A DNA stretch of 64,000 nucleotides from GCA_000165345.1 CM000434.1:704001-768000; one strand, 5' to 3'; positions 9,776 through 21,567 are shown, counted from the stretch's first letter. Notes: generated by a model from the sequence alone, not told the origin. Numbers and translations are program-made.

Positions 9776-12700
9776 TTATTCCTCTATAAATTCTGAGAAT
9801 AACAACTCTTGATATTGTTGAAAATGATATTCAGAATTAAAGAAGTTCTCAATTAATGATGAATGATCCATTATTGTTTCAAAATGAATTGTGACTTCTC
9901 TTTCAAGCTCTAGAACCCAATCTTGAAAGAGTGGACATACTAATTTTCGAATCGAAATAAACTCCAAATCTTGGTTATTTTTAAATGTTGTAATTAGATT
10001 GTACCAAACAATTAATACCATTAAAATCTTCCATTTAATACATTTAGAGCATACTTGAAAATAAAGATATGAAATTTGATATAAGGAAATTTTAGTATTT
10101 ATTATTCCATTTTCAAATTGTTTTTTATCAAGTTTATTAACTTTTTTTTTGGAAAAGAAGGCACCAGAGTTAGAAGAAATACTTTTTGTTGAGTTAACTT
10201 TAATTTTATTGGAAAAAACAATATCAAATATCCCAAAAAGTAGATTTGTAATAATTGCAGGAAATGCAGAAATTATTTCATTGTTTCTTCGTTTATACAT
10301 ATAATTTAATATAATTTGTAGTCCAATAAAAAATAGTTTAGAATCTTGATTGAGAGAATTTTCATATATTAATAGAGAAATTTGATTTGAGAGCCCTTTA
10401 TAAATTTGAATTTGTTTGTCTTTGATTATTTTATTATCTAGAATAGGAAAATCTAGATGGTAAAAATGATCAAAATTATCCTGATACTTGACTTGAGTGA
10501 GTTTATGATCTGAATATGTTCCTAAATCGAAATAAATTCGATGAAAAATGAGTTGTTTTTTAGATAAGTCTGAAATTGATTCCAATAGATCAATTGCAAT
10601 AATTCTTGCATGATTTTGAAAGGTAACATTATGGATGAGCATGTTGGGAAAAGAAATAGAAAAGTCTGCAACTTTCAACTTCAATTTGTTTCCAAAAGCA
10701 ATAATGTGATCAATTGACTGAGAATAGGTGGTAATATCGGTATTAATAGAATCATAATTTCTTTTAGTTTTTGAAATATCCAAACAGCTTATAACTCTTG
10801 TAGAAACAAGCTCCAAAGCTTTGTCAGTATCAAAGTTTTTCTCAACAAGAAAAAAAAAGAACTTTTTGTGATCAGATGGAGATCTGTAAATAAGACCTGA
10901 TTCAACTCCCTTGAAAGAATAACTTCCTGAGACAATAAAAGGATCTTTATGAAATTTGTGAGTATTAGTAGAATTACTGTGAACTGAAATAAGTTGAAAA
11001 ATAGTATTTGGTATAAAATTTTGATTTTCACCACGGTTAAAAACCTGAAAAAAGCTATCTTTTCCATTGTTTGGAAATATTTTGAATCTGAAATTTTCTT
11101 CAAAGTTTGAATCATTATCATTAATAGAGTAAGTTTTGGATCCACATAAATTAGCATCTGAATCAAATAGAAAAAGCTGCGAGCTGATTCTTGTGGGACA
11201 TTTATTTGAGTGTGAGTCTGGAATCCAATTCTCAATGTTAACAACAATCCAAGAGTTTTCTTTTAGATAAATCATATTTTCAACTTTATGACGAGTACTC
11301 TTCAAAGGCAAAACTTTGTCGCAACTTTGAAGTTTATTTGATTCCACATTAACTAGCTTAATATATTGATTTTCATGGCCTTGAAGAGATAAAAAGTAAA
11401 GATGATCATAATCTTGGTAATTTTCAGTAAATTGGGTAATAATAGAATAAATTGGAAATTTTAATCTTTTAATATGGAGAATTTTGAGAAATTTTTCGTT
11501 TGTCTCAAGCAATTCTGTATATAAATAATCAGTCATTGATCCTAAAATAATACGATTTTTCCATATTTGATTATTATTAAAAATGTGTCTTCTTTGAGTT
11601 CCAATAACTTTCAAATTAAAAACTTCCTGAGAAGAAATATGAGATTTTAAATTAATAATAATTTTTTTGTATTTGGTTTGATTTGTTTGAAACTTTTCTT
11701 GAAATAAATCTTGTGTAAATTGAATTAAACTAAAAATACATAAGAATCCAAAACTTGTTGTAATATATATATTATCATGAAAATTATTGTCAAATTCAAT
11801 AGAAGTGATCATTCCAACCTCAGAATCAAGAAAATGGTTCAGGTTGAAGTTAGATTTAATATTCTTCAAAGGATTTTGTATTGATGATAAATTTGCAAAT
11901 ATTTGGCTATGAGGATCTCCAATTAGAGTTAATATTACATGAGAAGAATTATTTAATATTAATTTTTTGGATTCAAATGATGAAATAATAGGGATATAAG
12001 TTAATTCATCTTTAATATCAAAATGAAAAAGTTGAAAAGACTCGATTTTTAACTGAATTAATTTATGTCCTTGAGTAATAATCATTAAGTGATTATCATC
12101 AGCCATTTTAGCATACATAATTAAATCAGGATATTCCCATAAATCTTTTATATTCGGTTGAAAATGATCAATATGATTTTGATTTTCAAAAGCTTTAACT
12201 TGTTCAGAAATTCCCTGGTATAATAAAATACGAGATTCTGTAACCTGTAGCATTAAATTATGACATACTTTAACACATAAAATAGTTGAATGACCACTTA
12301 TTAAAAAACCATTAATTTGAATTTTTTTTAAATAATATTTATTTTCAGGAATGGATTCTTGCTTTATAAGTAAATCAATTTGGCTTTCAAGGAACTTTGA
12401 ATAAACAACCAAATACCTGTTTTTTTCGATGGGTATAATAAAAATTTCAAGTACTCCTTTTTTTAAAGAATCAAATTGGGCTATTGTGGAAATCTTTAAT
12501 GAATTTAAAAATATATATCTTAAAACAAAATCATATTGAAAATAATATCCACCTTTAATTTGATCAAAGCAACATTGATATCTTCTGGCTGCTAATATAA
12601 ATTTATTATCAAAACAATTTGGAGCCATAATAGCCTTTTCCATTTTCAAAATTTCAAGAATTTTTGGGGCAAAAATAAATTTTTGTTTAAAGTTTGGAAA

Positions 12701-14296
12701 AGTTATCATTTTAATTACACCAAAAGTTGAGCTTACTATAATACTTTTTACAATGAGACATTCTTCATTATAATACAAGTATGGAGAAACACTTGAAATA
12801 TCTGATAATTCAAAACTTGGAGAATTGATTTGTAGCTTTATTATATCAAATTCTTTCATCTTATTATCTTGAAACTGAAGATTTAATATAAACATTTCCA
12901 TACATTTTGAAGAAATGAAAAACTTAATTCTTTGTTCATTAACATTTTCTTCAATGATTACGACATCTCTTAAATCAATATAAATTTTATCTTGATAATA
13001 TTCATTTAAATTTACGGTCAAAATTTCCTCATTAAATTCTTCAGCATCTAATTCACATAAAATTAATTTTAATTCATTCTTTTCATAATTAAATATTAAC
13101 AATAATTTTCTAAATCTACATATACACCCAGAATTAATAAAGCCAGACTTATATCCACATGCACTTGCACATGCAAGCACCGGTATTGATTTGTCATTTA
13201 TAGACCTCCCCACACTTACGTGTATTGATTTCATGTGGATTACCGGTATATGTGTGCAAAAAATGCGCATTTGATATAGTTGGGGAGAAAATGACGTGGA
13301 TGAAGAGTTTATTAATGGAATCAGATTGGTTTCAGATATTGGTTTTTGATAATTATCTCTGGGATTAATTTGATTTTTAAGTAAGTTATTCCAGTCAAAA
13401 AAGAAAGTTTTTCCATATAGAATTTGGTTTTTTAAATCACTAAAGAGGCAAAATACAATTGGTTGGATTTTTGTGTAGTTTTTGCATGTTTTAGAAAATG
13501 AAATACATTCAAGTTTGTATTTAAGCGAGTCAAAATGGAAGAGATTTTCAGTCTGAATTTTCAACTCCAATTGTTCAATAATACCATTTTTGTTTACTAT
13601 TAGATTTGGAACAATAAGAAAAGAATAAGAAGAAATACAGACAATAATATATCCAGTATCATTGTCTATTGCAATACAATATTCTGGTATTAGCTTTTCA
13701 AAGATTATAGGGAAGGAGTTGGCAAATTTTATACTGTATTCATAAGGTCTAATAAAGTTAATTTTTGGAATTGTCTTATTCTTGGAGAGTGAAATCGAAA
13801 ACTCATTTTTTATTAAAAGCTGGTTGCTGAATATATTTGGTTCATTTTCTTTAATATTATGGTCCTTAATTATTGTATTAATACTTGTTGGAAATGCAAT
13901 AAAGGAATTTGGAATCTTATATGAGATATAAGGACAATCATGCTTGGAATGAGGAATAGAAACGCTTTTCAAAGAAAATAAATGAAGATTTTGAGAACAA
14001 TCCAATACTAAAATTAAATCAAATTGACTTTCTTGAATTGAGTATCTCCAAAAATCAACACAAGTATCTTCAAGTTTAACTGTTATTGATGCTAATTCTT
14101 CATTATTTGATGGAATGAATTCACTGAATACCGTTAATTCATTATATTTTAGTGTGGAAATATCAAGAAATTGTCTATTTTTGTTTAATGGGAAGAATTT
14201 TCCTGTAATTGTTTTTAATACTGAGGAGTCATTATAAAGAACATTTCCCAATATAGAACAGTTTGGATTCATGCTCCGATTTAAAGCTTTATACAA
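9776..14296 (-). CDS. Large hypothetical protein (1506 aa), Asn/Ile/Lys/Phe-rich, no recognised domain
   Basis: Single uninterrupted 4.5-kb ORF on the minus strand. Composition is consistent with AT-rich coding. I could not match any family (possibly beta-propeller-like). Confidence 0.55.
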   Translation of the reverse strand: MYKALNRSMNPNCSILGNVLYNDSSVLKTITGKFFPLNKNRQFLDISTLKYNELTVFSEFIPSNNEELASITVKLEDTCVDFWRYSIQESQFDLILVLDCSQNLHLFSLKSVSIPHSKHDCPYISYKIPNSFIAFPTSINTIIKDHNIKENEPNIFSNQLLIKNEFSISLSKNKTIPKINFIRPYEYSIKFANSFPIIFEKLIPEYCIAIDNDTGYIIVCISSYSFLIVPNLIVNKNGIIEQLELKIQTENLFHFDSLKYKLECISFSKTCKNYTKIQPIVFCLFSDLKNQILYGKTFFFDWNNLLKNQINPRDNYQKPISETNLIPLINSSSTSFSPQLYQMRIFCTHIPVIHMKSIHVSVGRSINDKSIPVLACASACGYKSGFINSGCICRFRKLLLIFNYEKNELKLILCELDAEEFNEEILTVNLNEYYQDKIYIDLRDVVIIEENVNEQRIKFFISSKCMEMFILNLQFQDNKMKEFDIIKLQINSPSFELSDISSVSPYLYYNEECLIVKSIIVSSTFGVIKMITFPNFKQKFIFAPKILEILKMEKAIMAPNCFDNKFILAARRYQCCFDQIKGGYYFQYDFVLRYIFLNSLKISTIAQFDSLKKGVLEIFIIPIEKNRYLVVYSKFLESQIDLLIKQESIPENKYYLKKIQINGFLISGHSTILCVKVCHNLMLQVTESRILLYQGISEQVKAFENQNHIDHFQPNIKDLWEYPDLIMYAKMADDNHLMIITQGHKLIQLKIESFQLFHFDIKDELTYIPIISSFESKKLILNNSSHVILTLIGDPHSQIFANLSSIQNPLKNIKSNFNLNHFLDSEVGMITSIEFDNNFHDNIYITTSFGFLCIFSLIQFTQDLFQEKFQTNQTKYKKIIINLKSHISSQEVFNLKVIGTQRRHIFNNNQIWKNRIILGSMTDYLYTELLETNEKFLKILHIKRLKFPIYSIITQFTENYQDYDHLYFLSLQGHENQYIKLVNVESNKLQSCDKVLPLKSTRHKVENMIYLKENSWIVVNIENWIPDSHSNKCPTRISSQLFLFDSDANLCGSKTYSINDNDSNFEENFRFKIFPNNGKDSFFQVFNRGENQNFIPNTIFQLISVHSNSTNTHKFHKDPFIVSGSYSFKGVESGLIYRSPSDHKKFFFFLVEKNFDTDKALELVSTRVISCLDISKTKRNYDSINTDITTYSQSIDHIIAFGNKLKLKVADFSISFPNMLIHNVTFQNHARIIAIDLLESISDLSKKQLIFHRIYFDLGTYSDHKLTQVKYQDNFDHFYHLDFPILDNKIIKDKQIQIYKGLSNQISLLIYENSLNQDSKLFFIGLQIILNYMYKRRNNEIISAFPAIITNLLFGIFDIVFSNKIKVNSTKSISSNSGAFFSKKKVNKLDKKQFENGIINTKISLYQISYLYFQVCSKCIKWKILMVLIVWYNLITTFKNNQDLEFISIRKLVCPLFQDWVLELEREVTIHFETIMDHSSLIENFFNSEYHFQQYQELLFSEFIEE

Positions 14297-14654: not shown

Positions 14655-14891
14655 ATGGGTAAGGGTGGAAATGCTTGTAAGAGAAATCAATGTAGAGAAA
14701 GAAAGGTTGCTAATGGTGCTAAGGAGGGTAAGTCTCAGCTTAAAGTAAATGCTGAGGCAATGAGTTTGAAGTGTCAGATCTGCTTACAACCTTTTATGAA
14801 AGTTCAGACTGGGCCGTTACTTAAACAACATTGGGAAGCCAAACATCCAAAGAAGACTTTTCAAGAATGTTTTCCAGGGATAGAACTTTGA
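14655..14891 (+). CDS. ZNF706-like small C2H2 zinc-finger protein with an N-terminal 4F5/SERF-like basic region
   Basis: 78 aa. The C-terminus LKCQICLQPFMKVQTGPLLKQHWEAKHPKK matches the ZNF706 signature YTCTVCRTQMPDPKTFKQHFESKHPK. The N-terminal MGKGGN...KRNQ basic stretch resembles the 4F5 domain. Confidence 0.6.
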   Translation: MGKGGNACKRNQCRERKVANGAKEGKSQLKVNAEAMSLKCQICLQPFMKVQTGPLLKQHWEAKHPKKTFQECFPGIEL

Positions 14892-15164: not shown

Positions 15165-16298
15165 CTAAGGAAAGTTAAAACTAATCATTTGAGCAATTTG
15201 TGAATTTGATGGATGAAGTAATTTGAAGATATCTTCATTTTCAGTGGGACTTATTATGTTATTATCAAGCCCTATTTGGTTAAGAGTAAATATTAGTGTT
15301 GCGGTAATTTGCATTTTTCTGAGGTAAGATACTATAACTGATGCAATTGATACAGTTTCATTTGTAACTCTTGTCCCAACAATCATTATTGGGAATATAT
15401 CCTTTGGATCTGGATTACTTTCTTCAAGTTCTTTGAACGATTTAATTGTTTCTTCAATTGGTAAATTAGAATAAATCAAATATTCATCCTCTATGGGAAT
15501 TTTGGATTCTGAATTATTTACATGAATAATTCTTACTTCATTATTACTTGCTGATTTTATTTTATTTGGAGTAAAATCCATAATAGTTTTTATTCCCAAA
15601 CTTTTAAGAATCTGAGGATGAACACTTTGAAAAACATTTCCAAGATAAATTTTATAAGTTTCACCCCAGCTGATAACAAGTGGATATTCTATTGAAGCAA
15701 TAATCTTTGATTTTAGATTCTGGGGGATGTTTTTTATTGATTTAATACTTGAAATACATTCGGCATCTATACTACAACATATATATGGAAATTCAAGACT
15801 AAATGAAGAATATCCATTTTTTAATAAGTAAATGGATTTAATTGATTGTATACATTTTTTCAAGTATTCCAATACTTCTCTTTGTGAGATTTCTAAATCA
15901 CTGGTATTTGTAAGTCTTCCTTCAAAGTCATAAATTATTACATGTTTTCTCTTTATTCCAATAATTTCAGAGCTTTGATTTCTATTGGATTCTGGAAATA
16001 TTCTTTTAACCCTATCTAAACTATTACATTCAATTGAGCCATTTATTTTAGTCCTTGATTTTATTATTTGATTTTTTGTTCTAATATCACAAATTACTAC
16101 TGGCTCATTATCAATAATGGAAGCTGAATTCTTTTCAATTTCTTTTAAATTCTTGCAAAGTAAGAGTTGACAAATATTAAATAACTTCTTGTTAGAGATT
16201 GGCTTACATTCCAGCTCCTTGCCTTTCTTAATAAGGCTAGCAACGTCTCTTGATTCATTCAAAAGTCGATTATATTCTATTGCTCTATGGTTCTCCAT
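15165..16298 (-). CDS. Rhodanese (CH2) plus dual-specificity-phosphatase-fold protein lacking the catalytic Cys/Arg. An MK-STYX-like pseudophosphatase.
   Basis: N-terminal VVICDIRTKNQIIKSRTKINGSIEC...KHVIIYDFEG fits a rhodanese/CH2 domain. C-terminal IYLGN...LKSLGIKTIMD...IMIVGTRVTNETVSIASVIVSYL fits a DUSP fold. The HCxxGxxRS loop reads IVGTRVTNETVS (Cys to Gly, Arg to Glu) by my manual alignment. Confidence 0.5.
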   Translation of the reverse strand: MENHRAIEYNRLLNESRDVASLIKKGKELECKPISNKKLFNICQLLLCKNLKEIEKNSASIIDNEPVVICDIRTKNQIIKSRTKINGSIECNSLDRVKRIFPESNRNQSSEIIGIKRKHVIIYDFEGRLTNTSDLEISQREVLEYLKKCIQSIKSIYLLKNGYSSFSLEFPYICCSIDAECISSIKSIKNIPQNLKSKIIASIEYPLVISWGETYKIYLGNVFQSVHPQILKSLGIKTIMDFTPNKIKSASNNEVRIIHVNNSESKIPIEDEYLIYSNLPIEETIKSFKELEESNPDPKDIFPIMIVGTRVTNETVSIASVIVSYLRKMQITATLIFTLNQIGLDNNIISPTENEDIFKLLHPSNSQIAQMISFNFP

Positions 16299-17055: not shown

Positions 17056-18915
17056 TTAAGCTAACAATGGGGTAGAAAGATCTGATGAAGTCTGGACTGA
17101 TACAACCATTCCTTTGTTTATCTTTGAATTTGGAGAGAGAGAAAAAGAGTCACCTCCTTCTTGTTGAGAAAGAGCTGCGGAAATTAAAGTAGAAGAACCA
17201 GTTGAATCTAAATTATTAGTTGTCTTTGAATTACTTTCATGATTACCTGAAATTAAAAAACCATTCAAACTTTCTCCTCCTTCATTTTCATTAAATGTTC
17301 CATTCATAAACATGTTTCTTTGAGATGAATTTCCGATACAAGTATTATTATTATTTGCACTTAAAGAGGTATCTTGGTTTTGAAATAGAGGAAAATTGTG
17401 GATAAGAGAACCCGTCATGAAGTTGGGATGTCCTGTAATAATGTTCCCGCCAACTCCAGTGATAGTTAATCCAGCTAAATGGTTTAAATACCCAAGATGA
17501 TTGAAAAAATTGAATTGGTTTTGAAAGGCAATTTGGTGAAAAGTTTGACTCAAAAAATTGTTCAAATCTGGCCCAAAAATTCCGTTACAATTTGGAGAGA
17601 GTAAATCTGGGAAAGAAGAGGGAGGGCTACTAGTTGAATTAAAATGGGTTGTTGGCACGTGATTTTGTATTCCAGGTGGTAATTGATTTGGGAAGATAGA
17701 CCCCATGAGAGTAAAGTGGGTTCCCATTCCTACTCCTCCTAGACCTGTTCCTGCTATTCCTCCAATTCCTCCTGTTCCTCCAATTCCACCTGTTCCTCCA
17801 ATTCCACCTGTTCCTCCAATTCCTCCTGTTCCTCCAATTCCTCCGGTTCCTCCCATTCCTCCTGTTCCTCCCATTCCTCCTATTCCACCCATCCCTGCTA
17901 ATCCCATTGTTCCTGCTGCTCCTGTTCCACTTAAAAATGGGTTCTGCTCATTTATACTAGAAATTACACGATTAATCATTGTGTTGAATCCATCGATATC
18001 AGAAGAAAATTGCTTTTTCAGACGACTATTATTGTTAATTCCATTTTCACTTTCATTGTTAAAATCAGTAGATGAAGTAATATTTGGAATAGGTGGTATT
18101 TGAATATTGCTAAGAAAATTATTACTTGAGCTTTTCTTTATGTGATTACTATTTGTACTAGAAATACTGACTTCTGGCTCATTCTTTGTTGTAGATTCTT
18201 CAGTAATTGAGATTCCATTTTCGATTCCTTCTCCTGCTCCCACTCCTCCTACTCCTGCTCCTCCTACTTCTCCATTATTACCACTACTATTCCCACCAGA
18301 ATTTGTGATAATTGATAATGGTGATAGTATTCTGGATTCATTTGGTGAGTTATGATTACTATTATTTAAGATTCCAAAGTTAGGCTGTGATTCGATTTGA
18401 AATTGTTCTCTAAGATTATTGAGATCTGAATATTTCTCAGTTTTAGTTAATTTAATTGGTTGTTGAGGAGATGTACAAGATATATTACTCATAGTAGGAG
18501 ATTGTGTTTGAGCTAAAGTGTATAATGGAACAATACTTGGTTCAGATATATTTTTATTATTAGAATTGCCACTATTTTTTGGTTTATTCTTCTTTTGTAA
18601 AGCTTTTCTACTTTCATGAAGTGCACTATAATATTCGATTAATTCTTTTTTGGCTGGATCTAAAATTGGAGGATCATGAAGATCATCCGGTACTACACCT
18701 TTTACATCGATATAGTCAAGAACCGCTCTAGAAAGTAAAGATGCTGCTTCTTTACCATATTTAGCTTCACTAAAAGAACATTGTCTTCTACTAGGTTTTG
18801 TTGATTCATGAGTCCAAAAAACTACTCTCCATTCTTTTTTTCCACCTGGTTTATATACTCTTTCTCCCCTTGCTCTTGTTGGAGTTCTATTCTTATTAAT
18901 TAAGGAAGTTGTCAT
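17056..18915 (-). CDS. ApiAP2-type DNA-binding protein with an internal Gly-rich (GGTGGI)n repeat
   Basis: The N-terminus RVYKPGGKKEWRVVFWTHESTKPSRRQCSFSEAKYGKEAASLLSRAVLDYI fits the AP2 pattern W..W....R..SFS..KYG.E.A..LA (approx. nt 18705-18890). The middle carries GGTGGMGGTGGIGGTGGIGG repeats. N/S-rich low complexity. Confidence 0.6.
   Translation of the reverse strand: MTTSLINKNRTPTRARGERVYKPGGKKEWRVVFWTHESTKPSRRQCSFSEAKYGKEAASLLSRAVLDYIDVKGVVPDDLHDPPILDPAKKELIEYYSALHESRKALQKKNKPKNSGNSNNKNISEPSIVPLYTLAQTQSPTMSNISCTSPQQPIKLTKTEKYSDLNNLREQFQIESQPNFGILNNSNHNSPNESRILSPLSIITNSGGNSSGNNGEVGGAGVGGVGAGEGIENGISITEESTTKNEPEVSISSTNSNHIKKSSSNNFLSNIQIPPIPNITSSTDFNNESENGINNNSRLKKQFSSDIDGFNTMINRVISSINEQNPFLSGTGAAGTMGLAGMGGIGGMGGTGGMGGTGGIGGTGGIGGTGGIGGTGGIGGTGGIGGIAGTGLGGVGMGTHFTLMGSIFPNQLPPGIQNHVPTTHFNSTSSPPSSFPDLLSPNCNGIFGPDLNNFLSQTFHQIAFQNQFNFFNHLGYLNHLAGLTITGVGGNIITGHPNFMTGSLIHNFPLFQNQDTSLSANNNNTCIGNSSQRNMFMNGTFNENEGGESLNGFLISGNHESNSKTTNNLDSTGSSTLISAALSQQEGGDSFSLSPNSKINKGMVVSVQTSSDLSTPLLA
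17744..17905. repeat. 18-bp tandem repeat (about 8 to 9 copies of cctgttcctccaattcct) inside the ApiAP2 CDS
   Basis: Directly visible periodicity. Encodes (GGTGGI)n on the minus strand and generates the spurious PIPPVPP ORF on the plus strand. Confidence 0.85.
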
Positions 18916-19621: not shown

Positions 19622-20424
19622 AATTTTCTGATTAAAATGGATTAACTTTATATTATTGGATAAGACTTATTTAATAGTAATTCAATAATATTGGTATTAG
19701 AGGAGTGTAATTTTTGATAGAATTTTACTTCTATCAAATACTCACTCTTTATAGATTTCTCAAGTCAAATCCTTATTTAATAAAAATAAGAATAATAATA
19801 ACTTGACCAATATCTGAATTAACCAATTTTATCCCTTTATTTTCCTTTTCTTAACTTTATTTATATAAGTTCTCCATAAACGTAGATTTTTTTTTTCTAC
19901 CTATAATTTTTGCTGACCTATTTTCCAACCATATACCCCACGTAAATCAATATATAATATATTATATCTTGCCTCTTTTCTCTTTATCTATCCCTATCTA
20001 ACATTTAATGTTACACCGTGACTAAGCGTCTGTCATACCGCAACTCAGTCTAATGCATTAATTATTAGATAAATTCACTATTTAATATTATTTTAATTAC
20101 CGGGGTGTGCTAAATAATACGTATACTCCCGTTTGGCGCCAAGTCTTTTATCAAATAGGGTGTACCTATGGGGAAAATTTGGGATGAAAAAAGATTAATA
20201 AATTAGAAAAGATTTAGTAAGAATTAGTTTTTGATATAAGTAATGATTAGATTTGTTCTATAAAAAAAGAGTAAACAATGTTTTTTTTTGTTTTAATGGT
20301 GAATTTTCTTTCAAAGCATTCAATGATTTTTCTATTGAATTTTTTTTTGTTTTTTTTTTCTTCTTGTTCACCCACAAATTTTATGTTTCATTATATATTT
20401 ATTTGAAAAGAATAAATTAGAATT

Positions 20425-20450
20425 GCATGCGTCTTCCCGCCAAAGCATGC
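20425..20450. promoter_or_regulatory. GCATGC - TTCCCGCCAAAG (E2F-like) - GCATGC composite element in the AP2 / 21568 divergent spacer
   Basis: Seen directly. Confidence 0.4.
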
Positions 20451-20451
20451 A

Positions 20452-20480
20452 ATATATATATATATATATATAATATATAT
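20452..20480. repeat. (AT)n dinucleotide microsatellite
   Basis: atatatatatatatatataatatatat, seen directly. Confidence 0.9.
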
Positions 20481-20484
20481 AAAC

Positions 20485-20548
20485 GAAAAGGGGGGAGAGG
20501 GGGGAAGAAGAGAAGAGAGGGGGAGGAAGAGAAGAGAGGGGGAAGGAA
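20485..20548. repeat. 64-nt uninterrupted homopurine (GA/G-rich) tract
   Basis: gaaaaggggggagaggggggaagaagagaagagagggggaggaagagaagagagggggaagg. All purines on the plus strand. Confidence 0.9.
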
Positions 20549-21375
20549 TGAGAAATAGGGAGAGATGAGATAGTTAAAAAGAGAATGGTAGTAATAATAA
20601 CTATAGAGTTTTTTGATTAAAAAAAACTTGTAGGGCTTGTAAATTATATTTTCTCTTATAGTTTTAAATATATTATTGCGAACATTTTTTTAATATAAGA
20701 AAAAAAATATTTGTATGACGTGTGCGCGGCAACTTTTGGGATTTTAATATCATTACATGTCAATGCAAGTTGCATGTAATAATGATTTTTTGTAATTATG
20801 CTTGTAATGTATTGTAAGTTGCATGCAGAATAGTAATAATAATAAGAGAAGGAAAATGATGAGAAGAGAGGAAAGTGAATGGAATAGATTGTATTTGATT
20901 TGTTTGAATGATTTTTTCTAAATGAATTGGAGGAAAAAAACTTTTAAGTACATTAATTATATACCTAATCAATGTATTGAATTTTATGTGAGTTCAAATA
21001 TATATATGTAATTTTTTTTCTTTAAATTTAGTTGAAAGTTTGGCTAAATTGGAAAATTTAGCCGCGTATAATATTAAGAGCACAATAACTTAGAAAGTTT
21101 TAATAATATATATAAATAATAGTTTTGAGTAATTGACACGAATAGTAACAAATTATAACTATTTTTCTTTAGGTTAGGTTAGAAAAGTCAAATTAAAGAT
21201 GACGATAATAATAATAGTAATAATAATGATACAAATATAATGTTACTAATAATTAAATAGAAACATAGGGAGAGGGGGGGGGGCTATATTATATTACAAT
21301 AGTAATAATAATTTCCATAACTCTATATAATATTTGCATGCATGAAAAATTTTAAAATAATTTTTTTTTGAATAT

Positions 21376-21388
21376 TTTGGCGGGAATA
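21376..21388. promoter_or_regulatory. E2F-like TTTTGGCGGGAAT about 190 bp upstream of gene 21568
   Basis: Seen directly. GCATGCATG lies at 21335-21345 nearby. Confidence 0.45.
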
Positions 21389-21567
21389 ATGAGTTGGCAA
21401 TAAAATTGTGGTTGCGCATGCAAGCAAAAGTATTTATGTGGCTTAACAAAATATTAATAAAATAATAAACACAAACATTGAAAAAAAAAATCCGAGAAAG
21501 AAAGAAAAAGAAGGAATATTTAGGAGTAGTATATAAACAGAAAAAGTGAAGAAAATAGGAGGAGAAG

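Follow-up and report, generated by a model that had tools for sequence, protein, structure and literature searches.

A candidate rhodanese-DUSP pseudophosphatase of Cryptosporidium parvum catalogued as a dual specificity phosphatase

A 64,000-nucleotide stretch of the Cryptosporidium parvum genome (GCA_000165345.1 CM000434.1:704001-768000, here called the window) carries at positions 15165..16298, on the minus strand, a gene named as a phosphatase in databases, and the question raised by this locus is whether its product can act as one. The original prediction, made from the DNA alone, had proposed at these coordinates a protein resembling MK-STYX, with a rhodanese domain followed by a dual specificity phosphatase (DUSP) fold devoid of its Cys-x5-Arg catalytic loop. 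The open reading frame (ORF) proved to be exactly placed: it is a complete, intronless coding sequence of 377 amino acids (aa) plus stop, beginning with ATG, and the stop codon is counted within the end coordinate. The encoded protein has exactly the sequence of C. parvum Iowa II EAK89940.1, "dual specificity phosphatase, signal peptide", which has also been deposited as QOY41195.1, "hypothetical protein". The name of EAK89940.1 matches the cgd6_3100 entry in Table S1 of a phosphatase review (PMC8949495), where that gene is listed as an ordinary dual specificity phosphatase (DSP), so the ORF is probably cgd6_3100. The gene is therefore already annotated, but as an implicitly active DSP, and in this respect it is mislabelled. 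We consider it likely that its product is a non-catalytic member of the mitogen-activated protein kinase (MAPK) phosphatase (MKP) class, probably serving as a docking or scaffold subunit in which a rhodanese/CH2 domain is packed on a dismantled DUSP-fold domain.

The order of domains originally predicted, rhodanese and then DUSP fold, is confirmed by family-profile searches together with predicted structure. The MKP-type rhodanese/CH2 domain, predicted to be non-catalytic, occupies aa ~31-176 (15771..16208, minus strand) and is joined to the second domain by a linker at aa 177-204 (15687..15770, minus strand), which contains a helix at 193-201 in the model and aligns with the short linker of STYXL1 (MK-STYX). 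The DUSP-fold pseudophosphatase domain comprises aa 205-377 (15168..15686, minus strand). A hidden Markov model (HMM) profile built only from Cryptosporidium sequences was searched exhaustively against 1.84 billion representative proteins (E<=1e-3) and gave six clusters only, three of them Cryptosporidium lineages. The other three were a transcriptome protein (1e-9), Cvel_24457 of Chromera velia (9e-5) and a protein of the ciliate Pseudocohnilembus persalinus, KRX10958.1 (9e-4). The matches (aa 141-248) extend from the close of the rhodanese domain through the linker and take in the first third of the domain that follows. In Pfam, the ciliate protein (P0013) matches Rhodanese at 3e-6 and DSPc at 6.7e-15, while the Chromera protein (P0012) matches Rhodanese at 2e-3 and DSPc weakly, at 0.03. 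Broader alignments used as queries in word-indexed homology searches (A3 and A4) were swamped and yielded no further relatives.

When the family profile A3, which joins the Cryptosporidium sequences with the bridging relatives, was compared with the PDB, chains of STYXL1 came on top (1.5e-10 and 2.9e-9), with alignments running from the rhodanese domain across the linker into the beginning of the DUSP domain. These were followed by the MAPK-binding rhodanese domains of DUSP16 (1.2e-8), DUSP6 (8.7e-6) and DUSP10 (2.6e-5), then by CDC25 at ~4e-3 and, weakly, by the catalytic domains of DUSP6 and DUSP9. A structure search of the PDB with the better of two predicted models retrieved DUSP domains first and STYXL1 as the best match, and the predicted structure thus bore out the DUSP fold. 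The Cryptosporidium-only profile reached DUSP16 (0.11) and STYXL1 (0.28) in the PDB, both sub-significant, along with spurious histone H2B matches. These last are weak local matches (E 0.02-0.9) between aa 213-231, ETYKIYLGNVFQSVHPQIL (15606-15662, minus strand), and the first helix of histone H2B from many species (E[ST]Y.[IV]Y..KVLKQVHPD). The resemblance to the histone fold was judged to be chance, as the segment forms beta2 and alpha1 of the DUSP fold and the E values are not significant.

The strongest evidence on the catalytic loop is independent of alignment. In C. parvum, C. hominis and C. tyzzeri the last Cys lies no later than residue 181 and C-x5-R is missing from the whole protein, which confirms the predicted lack of a Cys-x5-Arg loop; the few scattered Cys of the other Cryptosporidium orthologues are non-conserved, with none at the phosphate-binding loop (P-loop). 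By the model, the bridging alignments and the HMMER register, the degenerate P-loop is placed at I304-MIV-G308-TRVTN-E314-TVS317 (IMIVGTRVTNETVS; 15348..15389, minus strand), which includes the peptide IVGTRVTNETVS (aa 306-317, window 15348-15383). In this register the canonical His corresponds to V307, the Cys to G308, the Gly to V311, the Arg to E314 and the Ser to T315, so that the Gly and Glu originally proposed at the Cys and Arg positions were recovered by four concordant lines. First, the model shows a strand at 304-308 (IMIVG), a loop at 309-312 and a helix at 313-327, the strand-loop-helix order that is canonical for the P-loop of a protein tyrosine phosphatase (PTP) fold. Second, the MAFFT alignments A2 and A5 both set VLMFCKDGNSIS of the ciliate protein over IMIVGTRVTNET of C. 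parvum. Third, the Cys of the ciliate P-loop falls on the catalytic Cys of VHR and on the equivalent residue of DUSP1 and DUSP4, whose crystal constructs carry a Cys-to-Ser change (E 1e-9 to 4e-8). Fourth, the register recurs in HMMER alignments, below threshold, with mouse STYXL1 (LVFSTRGISRSV) and with the Tyr-phosphatase 8dhi (HCTAGKDRT).

The same positions were compared across 15 species. Position 308 is G in four species, S in four, T in four and A in three, and never Cys; position 314 is E in 11, S in three and K in one, and never Arg; position 311 is V, I, L or S. No species has a Cys/Arg pair in the P-loop, and the particular Gly and Glu of C. parvum are themselves not fixed. The flanking residues F302, P303, V307 and V316 are invariant, and a variable P-loop between invariant flanks is the opposite of the pattern of an active site. 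The position of the general-acid loop (IPxxD in DUSPs) falls at P280-I-E282-E283 (15450..15461, minus strand) in A2 and A5, with a model helix starting at 281; this loop, L-P-I-E282-E283, is shortened and has no Asp, its Glu residues are invariant, and its register is less sure than that of the P-loop. All catalytic residues are thus shown to be absent in every Cryptosporidium species.

These results bear directly on the possibility that the protein is an active dual-specificity phosphatase whose nucleophile is non-canonical or whose active site has shifted. Its database name says as much, it stands among the five C. parvum DSPs of the review table (PMC8949495), and the DUSP fold is present; however, Cys is missing altogether from the DUSP-fold domain in C. 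parvum, C. hominis and C. tyzzeri, no species has a CX5R in the P-loop, and the nucleophile position varies among G, S, T and A where a catalytic residue would be expected to be invariant. With Glu, Lys or Ser in place of Arg, Val, Ile or Leu in place of Gly, and a shortened acid loop without Asp, we regard an active phosphatase as very improbable. Even less credible is that the rhodanese domain is the functional enzyme, with sulfurtransferase or CDC25-like phosphatase activity. Where the active-site loop of rhodaneses and CDC25 would lie, judged by alignment to 'VVVYDQSS' of DUSP16, the protein has Y123-D124 (15927..15932, minus strand), which is invariant in 15 species and has neither Cys nor CX5R, as in the inactive 'YD' loop of the non-catalytic MKP CH2 domains.

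A lost active site could also mark a gene in decay, and this was rejected, since dN/dS is ~0.1 and the ORF is intact in 15 species. Full-length orthologues, with identities from 99% down to 41%, are carried by C. hominis, C. tyzzeri, C. meleagridis, chipmunk genotype I, C. ubiquitum, C. canis, C. felis, C. bovis, C. xiaoi, C. muris, C. andersoni, C. serpentis and two more assemblies. Nei-Gojobori dN/dS is 0.127 against C. meleagridis, 0.096 against chipmunk genotype I and 0.081 against C. ubiquitum, and with values of 0.06-0.14 it is similar for both halves of the protein and for the segment containing the P-loop and alpha3. Both domains are under strong purifying selection. Conservation peaks at aa 221-240 (alpha1) and aa 321-340 and stays high through the C-terminal helices to aa 377; by structural element, the flanks of the P-loop, alpha1 and alpha3-alpha4 stand out. 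The identical deposited protein, the orthologues in 15 species, the kept neighbours and dN/dS of 0.08-0.13 confirm that the ORF is a real gene and not a chance reading frame. The C. hominis entry GY17_00000321 (P0014), of 138 aa, spans 37% of the protein at 98% identity; in this one assembly the locus seems to have been annotated in truncated form.

By sequence and model, the ORF product would be classed as a pseudophosphatase: the fold is predicted to be kept, the catalytic residues are replaced and the gene is under selection. Because the catalytic residues are absent while both domains are strongly constrained, the protein is shown, as far as sequence and model can show it, to be functional yet unable to act as a Cys-based phosphatase, and such constraint points to a role as a regulatory subunit, probably. 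In the dismantled site, Cys would have given way to Gly, Ser, Thr or Ala, Arg to Glu, Lys or Ser, and the P-loop Gly to Val, Ile or Leu, with the general-acid Asp gone, and the old pocket would probably no longer bind a phospho-residue. The original prediction had noted that such proteins serve as signalling scaffolds or substrate traps in other systems. Of these roles, trapping is unlikely because Arg has become Glu in most species and the residues of the pocket drift, whereas docking or scaffolding is the more likely role, in which a partner protein would be bound through the rhodanese domain and conserved surfaces of the DUSP domain. The conserved alpha1 and aa 321-377 blocks point to such protein-protein interfaces. 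The most plausible partner would be a CMGC-type kinase, either an atypical MAPK or a kinase related to cyclin-dependent kinases, by analogy with the MKPs and PfMKP1; a non-kinase partner may also be considered, as for STYXL1 with CCT. Binding would sequester, localise or shield the partner.

Several observations weigh against this reading, some of them touching the fold and others the mode of docking. Regarding the fold, PF00782 (DSPc) has no match in the C. parvum protein (E<=10) or in 11 Cryptosporidium orthologues (E<=1). The original prediction had named a missing DSPc hit as evidence against itself and, taken by the letter, this is what Pfam returned, so that deeper tests were needed. Searches with the single C. 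parvum sequence found neither Rhodanese nor DSPc in Pfam and nothing in the PDB by phmmer, the only matches across Pfam, PDB and NCBIfam being a chance-level Spc24 and a rhodanese-related model at 0.0026. The companion check with PF00581 (Rhodanese) fared better, as it was matched by three of nine close orthologues and by C. bovis (best E 1.2e-5; C. bovis 27.4 bits against a cut-off of 22.2), but not by the C. parvum protein itself. When the Cryptosporidium-only profile was aligned by hhalign to fragments of human DUSP1, DUSP4 and VHR, only 34 columns were covered (E 1.8e-4, probability 48%), corresponding to beta2-alpha1-beta3. By sequence, then, only the N-terminal third of the DUSP domain gives a signal, and the register of the P-loop cannot be fixed from hhalign; assignment of the P-loop half depends on the predicted structure and on two bridging sequences, and the good model was itself built from a multiple sequence alignment (MSA) of only 11 sequences.

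From these points it could be argued that the C-terminal half is not a DUSP domain at all, its resemblance being an artefact of structure prediction or a chance similarity of sequence. The first AlphaFold2 model, from a 9-sequence Cryptosporidium-only MSA, was indeed poor (predicted local distance difference test, pLDDT, 43.5) and was used only as a control for circularity. It nevertheless shares with the good model the same beta-alpha order in this half, both models retrieve DUSP domains first, and the poor one places DUSP-family domains on top (AtPFA-DSP1, DUSP26, DUSP9, DUSP7, Yvh1 and MKP5; E ~3e-3 to 1e-2). Furthermore, the Cryptosporidium-only profile reaches Chromera and the rhodanese-DSPc protein of the ciliate across the domain boundary, and the latter has an unambiguous Pfam DSPc match. 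A non-DUSP C-terminal half is accordingly held to be a slim prospect, and the DUSP assignment of the ORF is one that rests on fold and bridging homologues, not on a direct Pfam match.

Regarding docking, we infer both the mechanism and the partner kinase by analogy, and the segment that could have linked them to classical MKPs is of limited distribution. A segment resembling the kinase-interaction motif (KIM), R96-V-K-R-I100 (15999..16013, minus strand), was located by HMMER alignment with the DUSP16 motif LMKRRL, V97-K98-R99-I100 lying over K-R-R-L. The basic pair is found only in the clade from C. parvum to C. canis; the K98-R99 position is M-K, with one basic residue, in C. felis, I-S in C. 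bovis, and K-E or K-K in the C. muris group, and the pair is missing from C. xiaoi too. With the pair limited to one clade, classical KIM-mediated docking of a MAPK would not be genus-wide and is a less likely candidate for the conserved function.

For a putative docking protein of the MKP class, comparison with known systems indicates what is retained and what is not. With the classical MKPs (DUSP6/MKP-3, DUSP16/MKP-7, DUSP10/MKP-5, DUSP1 and DUSP4) the Cryptosporidium protein shares the architecture, the inactive 'YD' loop of the rhodanese domain, a beta1-beta3 motif (YP.xI....IYLGN......L..LGIKTI.D.TPN, against FPVEILPFLYLG...LEEFGIKYILNVTPN in DUSP6) and, in the C. parvum clade, the V-K-R-I that aligns with the DUSP16 KIM. 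Unlike them, it lacks HCxxGxxRS, the general-acid Asp and a Pfam DSPc match, its acid loop is shortened and its KIM pair is not genus-wide. STYX keeps its Arg and still binds phospho-residues, and it regains activity when its Gly is mutated back to Cys. It has no rhodanese domain, unlike the Cryptosporidium protein, which would need reversion at no fewer than three P-loop positions. The Cryptosporidium protein is more degenerate than either MK-STYX or STYX, both of which keep the Arg.

The likeness to MK-STYX deserves closer weighing, as it could mean that the protein is a true STYXL1 orthologue, an ancient pseudophosphatase with a conserved job as a cofactor of CCT and tubulin folding or as a component of axonemal radial spokes. 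The two-domain architecture and the fold are in common, and STYXL1 is the top PDB match by both profile and structure. Part of that rank is coverage, because the PDB has no full-length active MKP and only STYXL1 spans, and so can score on, both domains; the DUSP16 rhodanese domain alone scores nearly as well (37.9 vs 44.1 bits with A3). An axonemal role is excluded, as Cryptosporidium is not known to have a flagellated stage or an axoneme. STYXL1 itself is located in axonemal radial spoke 3 (PDB 9d2f, 9fqr), and its rhodanese domain binds the non-kinase partners CCT1, CCT6 and CCT7 with a degenerate KIM (PMC10761714). Its P-loop keeps the Gly and the phosphate-binding Arg (F-S-T-x-G-I-S-R-S; PMC8907265), whereas the Cryptosporidium protein has Val and Glu.

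The bridging relatives also speak against STYXL1 orthology. The DUSP domain of the ciliate protein has its best matches in the active DUSP1, DUSP4 and VHR, and STYXL1 is not listed at E<=1e-3. With Cys kept in the ciliate and Asp in Chromera, the loss in Cryptosporidium seems to have been independent of the metazoan Cys-to-Ser change. We therefore judge STYXL1 orthology unlikely, and 'MK-STYX-like', as the original prediction had it, is a description of architecture, not of demonstrated orthology. In themselves, the ciliate P-loop reads FCKDGNSIS, with the catalytic Cys kept and Ile at the Arg position, and that of Chromera FDVGGHDSA, with Asp at the Cys position, in a protein with a C-terminal extension of ~450 aa. 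To judge from these loops, both proteins may themselves be inactive, which hints at a stepwise decay of the P-loop site across alveolates. It is an outside chance that the Cryptosporidium, Chromera and ciliate proteins form an ancient alveolate lineage of MKP-architecture pseudophosphatases orthologous to metazoan STYXL1. If so, the 'dead MKP' would be older than animals and would have a conserved non-catalytic function, such as that of a chaperonin/tubulin or CMGC-kinase cofactor, surviving without flagella or a canonical MAPK cascade.

Among apicomplexans, the closest described analogue is PfMKP1 of Plasmodium falciparum (PF3D7_1305500 / PF13_0027). This protein of 771 aa carries a rhodanese domain and a DUSP-like region in which the catalytic residues are poorly conserved and CX5R is lacking; it has been suggested as a possible pseudophosphatase (PMC8949495), and its disruption delays the transition from pre-S to S/M. 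A more specific version of the docking-subunit reading is that the Cryptosporidium protein is the orthologue of PfMKP1 and regulates entry into S phase in schizogony or merogony. The two agree by description, both combining a rhodanese domain with a degenerate DUSP-like region without CX5R. Database names of relatives are 'Rhodanese domain-containing' or 'MAPK phosphatase 1', and for the orthologue in C. felis the depositors chose 'putative mitogen-activated protein kinase phosphatase 1'. Against this, the exhaustive profile search gave no Plasmodium or Toxoplasma protein at E<=1e-3, and the lengths differ (771 aa vs 377 aa). Orthology with PfMKP1 is thus a tentative proposal, somewhat doubtful as it stands.

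These findings have consequences for the annotation of the parasite. The catalogue of C. parvum contains 35 S/T/Y phosphatases, with five DSPs and no PTP, and its "DSP (RHOD)" row holds Plasmodium and Toxoplasma genes while the C. parvum column is empty (PMC8949495). If one of the five DSPs is dead, C. parvum has less capacity for tyrosine and dual-specificity dephosphorylation than the catalogue implies; the label of the gene ought then to become rhodanese-DUSP pseudophosphatase, without a signal peptide, and it would be a Cryptosporidium counterpart to the rhodanese-DSP class of Plasmodium and Toxoplasma. A search of the available literature found no mention of cgd6_3100 or of Cryptosporidium pseudophosphatases of the rhodanese-DUSP type. 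The original remark that such proteins are rarely annotated in apicomplexans is weakened by the gene having already been deposited, as a DSP, and by the earlier suggestion for PfMKP1. In concept this is a standard pseudoenzyme, a known kind of protein with no new mechanism, and its value lies in correcting the annotation of a small parasite phosphatome.

The signal-peptide label in the GenBank/UniProt name also looks wrong, because the N-terminus (MENHRAIEYNRLLNESRDVASLIKKGKE...) is hydrophilic, with a Kyte-Doolittle(11) maximum of 1.51 at aa 38 in the first 60 aa, and the model predicts an amphipathic helix at 4-24. From hydropathy and model, aa 1-30 (16209..16298, minus strand) would form an N-terminal amphipathic helix and not a signal peptide, and a secreted protein was rejected for want of a hydrophobic N-terminus.

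The surroundings of the gene are those of an AT-rich region (~30% GC in the window, with long, intronless ORFs), and no tRNA genes were found in the 64-kb window. Four neighbouring ORFs gave no domain by Pfam scan, and the genomic context added no information, which is to be expected in a eukaryote. A 78-aa gene (14655-14891, plus strand) with Pfam zf-met2 (3.5e-17) and SERF-like_N (1.5e-4) lies convergent to the pseudophosphatase gene, and C. ubiquitum, C. meleagridis and chipmunk genotype I have it as a neighbour too. A very long ORF at 9776-14296 (minus strand; 1506 aa as listed from TTG) has no domain by Pfam scan; in C. ubiquitum and C. felis it is kept as a neighbouring gene of 1509 to 1525 aa. 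On the other side, a 619-aa ORF (17056-18915, minus strand) without a Pfam match contains a Gly-rich repeat of the GGTGGIGG type, encoded by an 18-bp tandem array at 17744-17904 (7.7 copies, 93% match), of which the antisense ORF at 17705-18103, with PPIPPVPP repeats, is a by-product. The corresponding genes encode 528 aa in C. ubiquitum and 447 aa in C. felis, so the length of this protein appears variable. Farther along, a GC-skew spike of +0.417 occurs in the apparently intergenic bin 20001-22000, and the region at 20495-20554 holds three copies of a purine-rich 19-bp tandem repeat (GAGAGGGGGGAGGAAGAGAA) together with an (AT)15 run.
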